Shown: piece after piece, positions 60,455 through 61,201 of the stretch | Layout: each line of letters opens with the position of its first letter | Numbering within the stretch: position 1 is the first letter of the stretch | Origin: Verrucomicrobiota bacterium | GTDB lineage: Bacteria; Verrucomicrobiota; Kiritimatiellia; CAIQIC01 | Assembly (NCBI GenBank): GCA_004321905.1 | Contig: SCQF01000006.1 | Coordinates: forward strand, 25,410-89,409 | DNA length: 64,000 nucleotides | Direction of reading: 5' to 3' | Made by a program: the position numbers and the translations under genes | Notes under the pieces: model-generated | The model's database searches: none | Seen by the model: the letters and a program-made list of their open reading frames with translations, nothing else | What the model was told of the DNA's origin: nothing

Positions 60455-61201
60455 TCATTTTTTCCGGACGATCAACCGATCACCCGGCACCGGCTGCTTG
60501 CCAGCGTATAGCTTCTCAATCACCATTCCGGTAAACGTTTCACGAACGTCTGCCGCGTGCACATCCGCCACCGGCGTCTTATCGTGCACAACACAAAAAC
60601 TCATCCCGGCCTGCATCCCGGCCTGCGCACCCGCATCGGCTACCAGCATATTCAAGGGCGCGTTAACATCCACAACCCGCACCATCGGTGCACTCAATAC
60701 CGCGCCCGCAGGCGGCGGCAACACATCCTCACTGCCCGCCTTGGGTCGAACCCGCCGCAGCGTCTCGACCTCATCTTGCGCCGCACTTAGCGCGGCTTCC
60801 AGTTCACGCGCGCGATTTTGCAACCGCTCCTGATCATGTTTCCGCGCGTCCAGCTCCGCTATCTGCCGCTCATACTTTGCGCACCAAGCACTCAAGGCCT
60901 GCCGCGCCACAACCGCTTGCTCTTGCCAACTCTGCGCACTCGCTTGCGCCGCACTTAGCGCGGCTTCCCGTTCCTGCGCGCGATTTTGCAACCGCTCCTG
61001 ATCACGTTTCCGCGCGTCCAGATCCGCCATCTGCCGCTCATACTTTGCACACCAAGCACTCAAGGCCTGCTGCGCCACAACCGCTTGCTCTTGCCAGCTC
61101 TGCGCACTCGCTTGCGTATCCTGCCGGCGCCAATAACGACCAATCACAACACCCGCAAGCAGCATCACGACCACGCTCAACCACCTCGCGGTCCGTTTCA
61201 T
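60455..61201 (-). CDS. membrane-anchored coiled-coil repeat protein inserted between rpsS and rplV
   Basis: 248 aa with an N-terminal TM helix (WLSVVVMLLAGVVIGRYW), two near-identical 56-aa coiled-coil repeats (SAQSWQEQAVVAQQALSAWCAKYERQ...) and an ~85-aa beta-rich C-terminal domain. It is separated from the r-protein genes on each side by only 9-10 bp. Confidence 0.6.
   Translation of the reverse strand: MKRTARWLSVVVMLLAGVVIGRYWRRQDTQASAQSWQEQAVVAQQALSAWCAKYERQMADLDARKRDQERLQNRAQEREAALSAAQASAQSWQEQAVVARQALSAWCAKYERQIAELDARKHDQERLQNRARELEAALSAAQDEVETLRRVRPKAGSEDVLPPPAGAVLSAPMVRVVDVNAPLNMLVADAGAQAGMQAGMSFCVVHDKTPVADVHAADVRETFTGMVIEKLYAGKQPVPGDRLIVRKK
60779..61114. repeat. 168-bp tandem direct repeat, 2 copies, ~95% identical
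   Basis: cgccgcacttagcgcggcttcc(a/c)gttc...gcgcactcgcttg recurs with period 168 bp (copy 1 about 60779-60945, copy 2 about 60946-61113), giving the 56-aa protein repeat. Confidence 0.8.

Follow-up and report, generated by a model that had tools for sequence, protein, structure and literature searches.

The window (the whole stretch of 64,000 nucleotides that was analysed) contains an S10-spc-alpha superoperon on its minus strand, in which the genes follow each other in the order rplC, rplD, rplW, rplB, rpsS, X, rplV, rpsC, rplP and onward, with secY, adk, map and rpoA further downstream. Gene X (60455..61201, minus strand) is an ORF of 248 aa with an ATG start. From the ORF itself, its homologues, dN/dS values and structure models, its product can be described as a coiled-coil protein that is probably exported or anchored in the membrane and ends in a FlgT_C-like beta-barrel. 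The upstream neighbour is rpsS (ribosomal protein S19; 61211..61495, minus strand; Pfam Ribosomal_S19, E 5.9e-38) and the downstream neighbour is rplV (ribosomal protein L22; 60094..60444, minus strand; Pfam Ribosomal_L22, E 7.2e-31). The rpsS stop is separated from the ATG of gene X by 9 nt, and the stop of gene X from the rplV ATG by 10 nt. The ORF and the Pfam assignments of its flanks thereby confirm a preliminary description of this DNA, which had reported an extra 248-aa ORF between rpsS and rplV, on the same strand and with 9-10 bp gaps.

A putative Shine-Dalgarno sequence of gene X, AAGTAGG (61210..61216, minus strand; 6/7 match to AAGGAGG), overlaps the TAG stop codon of rpsS and is located 8 nt before the ATG. 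The Shine-Dalgarno sequence of rplV, read from the sequence as GAGGA (60452..60456, minus strand), in turn overlaps the TGA stop codon of gene X. Shine-Dalgarno-like motifs ('aagtaGG/aagtaaGG') precede gene X at related loci too, and distant lineages again show the 'TGAGG...ATG' overlap between the gene X stop and the rplV ribosome-binding site. At the intact related loci, the S19-X gap measures 2-14 nt and the X-L22 gap 1-13 nt. Judging by the overlap of stop codon and Shine-Dalgarno sequence, gene X and rplV are probably translationally coupled.

A pattern scan of the coding strand between 59900 and 61700 found no sigma-70-like promoter and no intrinsic terminator. With gaps of only 9 and 10 nt and without such signals on the coding strand, gene X is almost certainly co-transcribed with the S10 operon. 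The preliminary description had gone further and considered the gene stoichiometrically coupled to the r-proteins; the co-transcription stands, but it leaves the translation yield free, so that a stoichiometric coupling cannot be concluded from it. Gene X displays the hallmarks of an operon passenger: the same strand, short gaps, no promoter or terminator in between and a position that is conserved across genomes. Its GC content, which had been equated with that of its neighbours, is slightly higher (0.61-0.63 for the ORF versus 0.52-0.60 for the flanking r-protein genes) but lies inside the window's range. When codon usage was tried as an expression proxy, the r-protein genes (leave-one-out) were inseparable from 21 background genes of this window.

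Shadow ORFs of 128 aa and 176 aa are present opposite gene X at 60447-61218 (plus strand), as is typical of this GC-rich window. With such long shadow ORFs, the length of an ORF alone is therefore no proof of a gene here. Two observations could speak for a spurious ORF, a frameshift or an assembly artefact (an artefactual tandem repeat included), namely the abundance of these shadow ORFs and the fact that the duplicated form of gene X described below was found in one contig only. An artefact is nevertheless very improbable and was rejected: homologues of the gene are conserved under purifying selection across many independent assemblies (ENA, JGI, NCBI, Logan), and the two repeat copies have diverged at 9 positions while keeping both the frame and the heptad register. 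An identical protein is deposited at NCBI as 'MAG: hypothetical protein EPN23_01310 [Verrucomicrobia bacterium]'. Among close relatives, dN/dS amounts to 0.20 in the C-terminal domain and rises to 0.59 in the anchor and stalk, in comparison to 0.09 for L22 and 0.07 for S19, all of these values being rough with dS near saturation. The C-terminal domain is under purifying selection (dN/dS roughly 0.2), and it is nearly certain that gene X is a genuine, conserved, selected and syntenic gene.

Elsewhere in the window, a 6S RNA (Rfam RF00013, 85 bits; 34696-34875, minus strand) is located directly downstream of an ORF matching PheT domains (35166-37577, minus strand), and a single tRNA was found at 7273-7345 (minus strand). 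A HydF GTPase (44332-45582, minus strand) adjoins a radical-SAM/BATS protein (42798-44429, minus strand); these [FeFe]-hydrogenase maturation genes point to an anaerobic, hydrogen-metabolising organism. The ABC-2 transporter cluster at 19241-24389 (minus strand) comprises an ATPase, an ABC-2 permease, an ABC_transp_aux protein and a DUF4340 protein. It presumably resembles the gliding-associated GldA/F/G type and is adjoined by an HtrA-like protease (24408-25796). For two further ORFs, one of 847 aa (16756-19299, minus strand) and one of 267 aa (10907-11710, minus strand), no Pfam match was obtained at E<=1e-5.

Distribution and history of the rpsS-X-rplV arrangement

The preliminary description had proposed to search with an HMM of the C-terminal domain and to compare the rpsS-rplV junction across related genomes, and both approaches were productive. 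An HMM of the C-terminal 97 aa was run against 1.84 billion representatives of 50%-identity clusters and retrieved 320 proteins at E<=1e-3, 39 of them at E<=1e-10. The 164 sequences examined have a median length of 187 aa, and in 154 of them the domain lies right at the C-terminus. The loci that were read extend from close to distant family members and comprise those of P0009, P0014 and P0012, of three GTDB species labelled 'uncultured Lentisphaerae bacterium', of P0017 and P0018, of P0195, P0194 and P0165, and of P0023 and P0205, together with six metagenome loci. In each of the 24 related loci with two readable flanks, gene X occupies the rpsS-rplV slot. By tblastn on the first 24 loci, the S19-X-L22 order was recovered in 22/22 with both flanks present; the remaining two end at a contig edge, and their single readable flank is as expected.

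As judged from sequence, the carriers of gene X span a deep divergence; in the most distant ones, the identity to the window's r-proteins is 55-61% for S3, 58-62% for L2 and 32-50% for L22. The insertion is not a peculiarity of this genome; it is old and widespread in a Verrucomicrobia-related clade. It had also been considered that the gene might turn out to be universal and already characterised in its clade; widespread it is, but not characterised. As a separate observation, the L22 proteins of distant carriers (rplV of L014, L017, L019 and L025) possess a Lys/Pro/Ala-rich C-terminal extension and measure 154-176 aa, compared to 115-116 aa in the window's clade.

The reverse test started from a search with L22, after which the upstream region of two named matches was inspected. 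In the 'Verrucomicrobiae bacterium' MAG GCA_019694135.1, the slot contains an ORF of 267 aa that matches the family HMM with an E-value of 1e-20. In the 'Kiritimatiellia bacterium' MAGs GCA_029559795.1 and GCA_050178035.1, gene X is absent from the rpsS-rplV slot and only a non-coding spacer of 106 bp is found. This spacer (L027 2895-3000 and L028 2895-3000) is unusually long and nearly identical in both assemblies; it may be the scar of a gene loss or a regulatory element.

In a neighbour-joining tree of L2, S19, L22 and S3 (714 columns, E. coli as outgroup), the Kiritimatiellia lineage without the insert nests among the carriers in 300 of 300 bootstraps, a value that comes from a distance method with four proteins and a remote outgroup. 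Because of this nesting, gene X has probably been lost in that lineage. One old insertion followed by a later loss would be the simplest history. A horizontal or mobile insertion was rejected, given the identical position across deep divergences and the lack of mobile-element features. Gene X appears to be restricted to one PVC clade. A stable insertion between rpsS and rplV over long evolutionary time is rare, and this one offers a simple gene-order marker for a PVC sub-clade.

Architecture of the protein and fold of its C-terminal domain

The protein starts with a hydrophobic segment (residues 7-21, WLSVVVMLLAGVVIG; 61139..61183, minus strand), which according to a hydropathy scan is a probable uncleaved signal anchor. 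It is followed by a coiled-coil stalk (residues 28-151; 60749..61120, minus strand) with one continuous heptad register, in which the a/d positions are 77% hydrophobic as opposed to 30% at the other positions. AlphaFold2 models a single helix for residues 3-151 (pLDDT above 90), disorder for residues 155-170 and a beta domain at about 173-246. The disordered part belongs to a conserved Pro-rich linker (RPKAGSEDVLPPP..., residues 152-172; 60686..60748, minus strand; pLDDT below 50), where R152, P153, G156, S157, L161 and P162-164 are invariant in the close clade. The C-terminal domain (residues 173-248; 60458..60685, minus strand) is a six-stranded, FlgT_C/TsaP/MreC-like beta-barrel, and with an alignment of 101 sequences AlphaFold2 predicted this six-stranded barrel confidently (pLDDT above 93, model residues 21-90). 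Hydropathy, tandem-repeat analysis (TRF) and AlphaFold bear out the anchor, the two 56-aa coiled-coil repeats and the beta-rich C-terminal domain as they had been described in advance.

The stalk contains a tandem duplication of 168 bp x 2.0 (60775..61116, minus strand; TRF period 168, 94% matches), which corresponds to 56 aa or 8 heptads. The two copies differ at 9/168 nt and 6/55 aa and are in frame and in heptad register. The close homologues are 189-201 aa long, and since all 13 of them have a single copy, the duplication is specific to the window's lineage. At about 1.5 Å per residue, the 124 stalk residues of the window copy would extend over some 18 nm, versus about 10 nm in the single-repeat relatives. 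A tandem duplication of one heptad (7 aa, KAAQAET-KAAQAET) is found in the coiled coil of the relative P0013 (locus L008). It parallels the 8-heptad duplication of the window: the stalk changes its length in whole heptads.

Searches of Pfam, NCBIfam and PDB sequences with the window protein or a close-clade profile gave coiled-coil noise and sub-threshold matches only. The window protein did not match FlgT_C (PF16538) at E<=1 to 10 and stays below the gathering score of 27 bits. At the level of structure, Foldseek against the PDB ranked FlgT first (8z5n, E 7e-4; 3w1e, E 2e-3), followed by the N-terminal barrels of F1/V1 ATPases. FlgT_C is matched weakly in Pfam by 39 of 101 family members (best E 2e-4) and the MreC barrel core by 7 of 101 (E>=0.0099), the window protein not being among the latter. 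A distant relative, P0163, does score above the FlgT_C gathering threshold (41.5 vs 27 bits) and the window protein does not, so the link from the window protein to FlgT_C is transitive only. When a broad family profile was compared to PDB sequences, the best match was TsaP (E 0.0025), over its FlgT_C-like domain only. The domain of gene X also folds as a small beta-barrel ('beta-roll') like the FlgT C domain. Taken together, the evidence supports placing it among the FlgT_C-like barrels as a divergent and minimal representative, with homology at the level of the domain only.

The family as a whole is unannotated. The precomputed Pfam field reads '-' for nearly all members, and the source annotations are 'hypothetical protein' with the exception of one 'YhcB (DUF1043 family)' and two 'MreC' on fragments. 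No Pfam or NCBIfam family covering gene X was found, and nothing on an rpsS-rplV insertion in these bacteria turned up in the searchable literature library. The PVC signature protein CT421.2 was considered as the identity of gene X and rejected, being a different protein. CT421.2 is an uncharacterised protein of 53 to just over 80 aa that was proposed as a marker of the PVC clade (Gupta et al. 2012, PMC3444138). Both are uncharacterised PVC proteins, but no X-like architecture has been reported for CT421.2.

Location, possible role and alternatives

Many family members start with a cleavable signal peptide (e.g. '...FTSGARA|EDAVE' and '...RPLVA|QEAVD'). Others start with a hydrophobic anchor of 18-22 aa, and a lipobox-like motif is present in 24 of 173. 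In the window copy, about three positive charges are found on each side of the hydrophobic segment. P0016 (765 aa), a close relative of the window's domain (E 1.7e-39), is a Ser/Thr kinase fusion: its Pkinase domain (33-302) precedes a hydrophobic helix near 385-405, behind which come a coiled coil and the X domain. In bacterial Ser/Thr kinases of the bitopic type, everything beyond the membrane helix lies outside the cytoplasm. The fusion suggests that the barrel can act as an extracytoplasmic sensor or docking module. In P0016, which is encoded outside the window, the near-identical X barrel occupies residues 581-674 and is followed by some 90 further residues. The signal peptides of relatives, the kinase-TM-X fusion of P0016 and the periplasmic nature of FlgT, TsaP and MreC together argue that stalk and barrel are extracytoplasmic. 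It is thus quite probable that the gene X protein is exported, and the window's own copy would be periplasmic.

The reading that is favoured here, by a small measure of confidence, is that of an exported protein anchored in the inner membrane, transcribed with the S10 operon and serving as a periplasmic scaffold or tether. Taken by itself, the scaffold or tether role is tentative and falls just short of an even chance. In this proposal, the rpsS-X-rplV order would have gone to fixation in an ancestor of a Verrucomicrobia-related (PVC) clade, and gene X would have been inherited vertically in that slot since then, with at least one loss. The product would be translated from the S10 transcript, be inserted into the inner membrane by Sec and remain there through its signal anchor. 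The continuous coiled coil probably drives oligomerisation, and the barrel on its flexible Pro-rich linker would reach a partner in the cell wall or outer envelope. The protein would then form an oligomeric periplasmic stalk, a structural component required in proportion to growth. Because its stop codon is located inside the rplV ribosome-binding site, gene X would be translationally chained to its neighbours; with S10 transcription and this chaining, its synthesis should therefore track ribosome synthesis. We infer both the oligomerisation and a high, growth-coupled expression.

A bolder version is speculative and distinctly unlikely: an abundant tether or ruler analogous to Lpp, in which an inner-membrane stalk would span the periplasm with its barrel docked on the wall or outer membrane. 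Stalk length would be adjusted by whole heptads, with 8 extra in this genome and 1 in a relative, and the insertion would be an ancient shared-derived PVC character that hard-wires envelope construction to ribosome synthesis.

An accessory ring or adaptor of a trans-envelope machine (a secretin, type IV pilus, type II secretion system or similar) would agree with the closest structures and the best sequence-profile match, FlgT and TsaP, which are both ring-forming periplasmic accessories, the former of the flagellar H-ring and the latter of the PilQ secretin. Gene X, however, encodes a single minimal barrel without the FlgT N and M domains or the TsaP LysM domain. No machine genes were seen beside it at any locus examined, the neighbours all being r-protein genes, and the S10-operon address indicates constitutive, growth-coupled rather than machine-coupled expression. 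Such an accessory is accordingly unlikely. That the protein is a divergent MreC-like morphogenetic scaffold, organising peptidoglycan synthases, is quite improbable. Its score against NCBIfam NF010532 is 17.1 bits where the cut-off is 243, and its barrel is single and comprises about 75 aa, in contrast to the two-lobed core of about 150 aa in MreC. Many family members carry a cleavable signal peptide instead of a TM anchor, FlgT and TsaP outscore MreC in every comparison, and gene X was never beside mreB or mreD in the loci read, nor were mre genes present among the window ORFs scanned.

The preliminary description had rightly remarked that the product does not look like a ribosomal protein, as no such family was matched. 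Its further suggestion of a lineage-specific ribosome-associated protein did not hold up well. A membrane-tethered factor that faces the cytoplasm and is associated with the ribosome or linked to translation would have to be reconciled with the cleavable signal peptides and lipobox-like motifs of the relatives, with an X domain that follows the TM helix in a bitopic Ser/Thr kinase, and with top fold and sequence relatives that are periplasmic scaffolds. No RNA-binding or ribosome-binding family was matched in Pfam or NCBIfam either, and this explanation is highly improbable. Of the related idea of a membrane-tethered link between ribosome synthesis and the envelope, only a weak form survives, namely an envelope protein with transcription coupled to ribosome synthesis.

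The insertion also draws attention to a family that has no annotation and comprises at least 320 sequence clusters. Its members probably are a constitutively expressed envelope component of Verrucomicrobia-related bacteria, a group with a poorly known envelope biology. Should the protein prove abundant and structural, it would provide a handle for studying how envelope growth is matched to ribosome synthesis. Should the operon merely tolerate the gene, this would still show that an exported protein can be encoded in the S10 core without disruption of r-protein expression.

Comparison with known systems

FlgT from the flagellar H-ring of Vibrio (PF16538; PDB 3w1e, 8z5n) consists of the three domains FlgT_N, FlgT_M and FlgT_C in about 350 aa and is encoded among flagellar genes. 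The gene X protein differs in both architecture and context, since it is a minimal barrel behind a coiled coil that is encoded in the S10 operon. The type IV pilus secretin-associated protein TsaP (PDB 3jc8/6ve2) contains an N-terminal LysM domain that binds peptidoglycan and two barrels, without a coiled coil (bioRxiv 10.1101/2020.05.29.123786). In gene X, the coiled coil is long, the barrel is single and no LysM match was obtained in Pfam or NCBIfam. MreC shares the overall plan of an N-terminal TM anchor, a coiled coil and a periplasmic beta domain, yet the resemblance is one of plan only. MreC has a double-barrel core, is always TM-anchored and is encoded in the mreBCD operon, whereas gene X stays below the curated thresholds of PF04085 and NF010532 and is located outside any mreB-mreC-mreD cluster.

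With respect to its genomic address, gene X can be compared to the passengers of the S10-spc-alpha superoperon, i.e. secY, adk, map, infA and rpoA. Like X, these are all non-ribosomal genes that share the transcripts of the r-protein genes around them, and SecY likewise belongs to the envelope and export. For secY in the neighbouring spc operon, as for gene X, the position couples transcription to ribosome synthesis. To our knowledge, these passengers are near-universal in bacteria and located distally in spc or within alpha, while gene X is found in the S10 core, between rpsS and rplV. In E. coli, rpsS and rplV are adjacent with a gap of 14 nt, and as far as we know this adjacency is found in nearly all other bacteria. 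The fold and the existence of passengers in r-protein operons are already known; the family and its position in the S10 core appear to be new.
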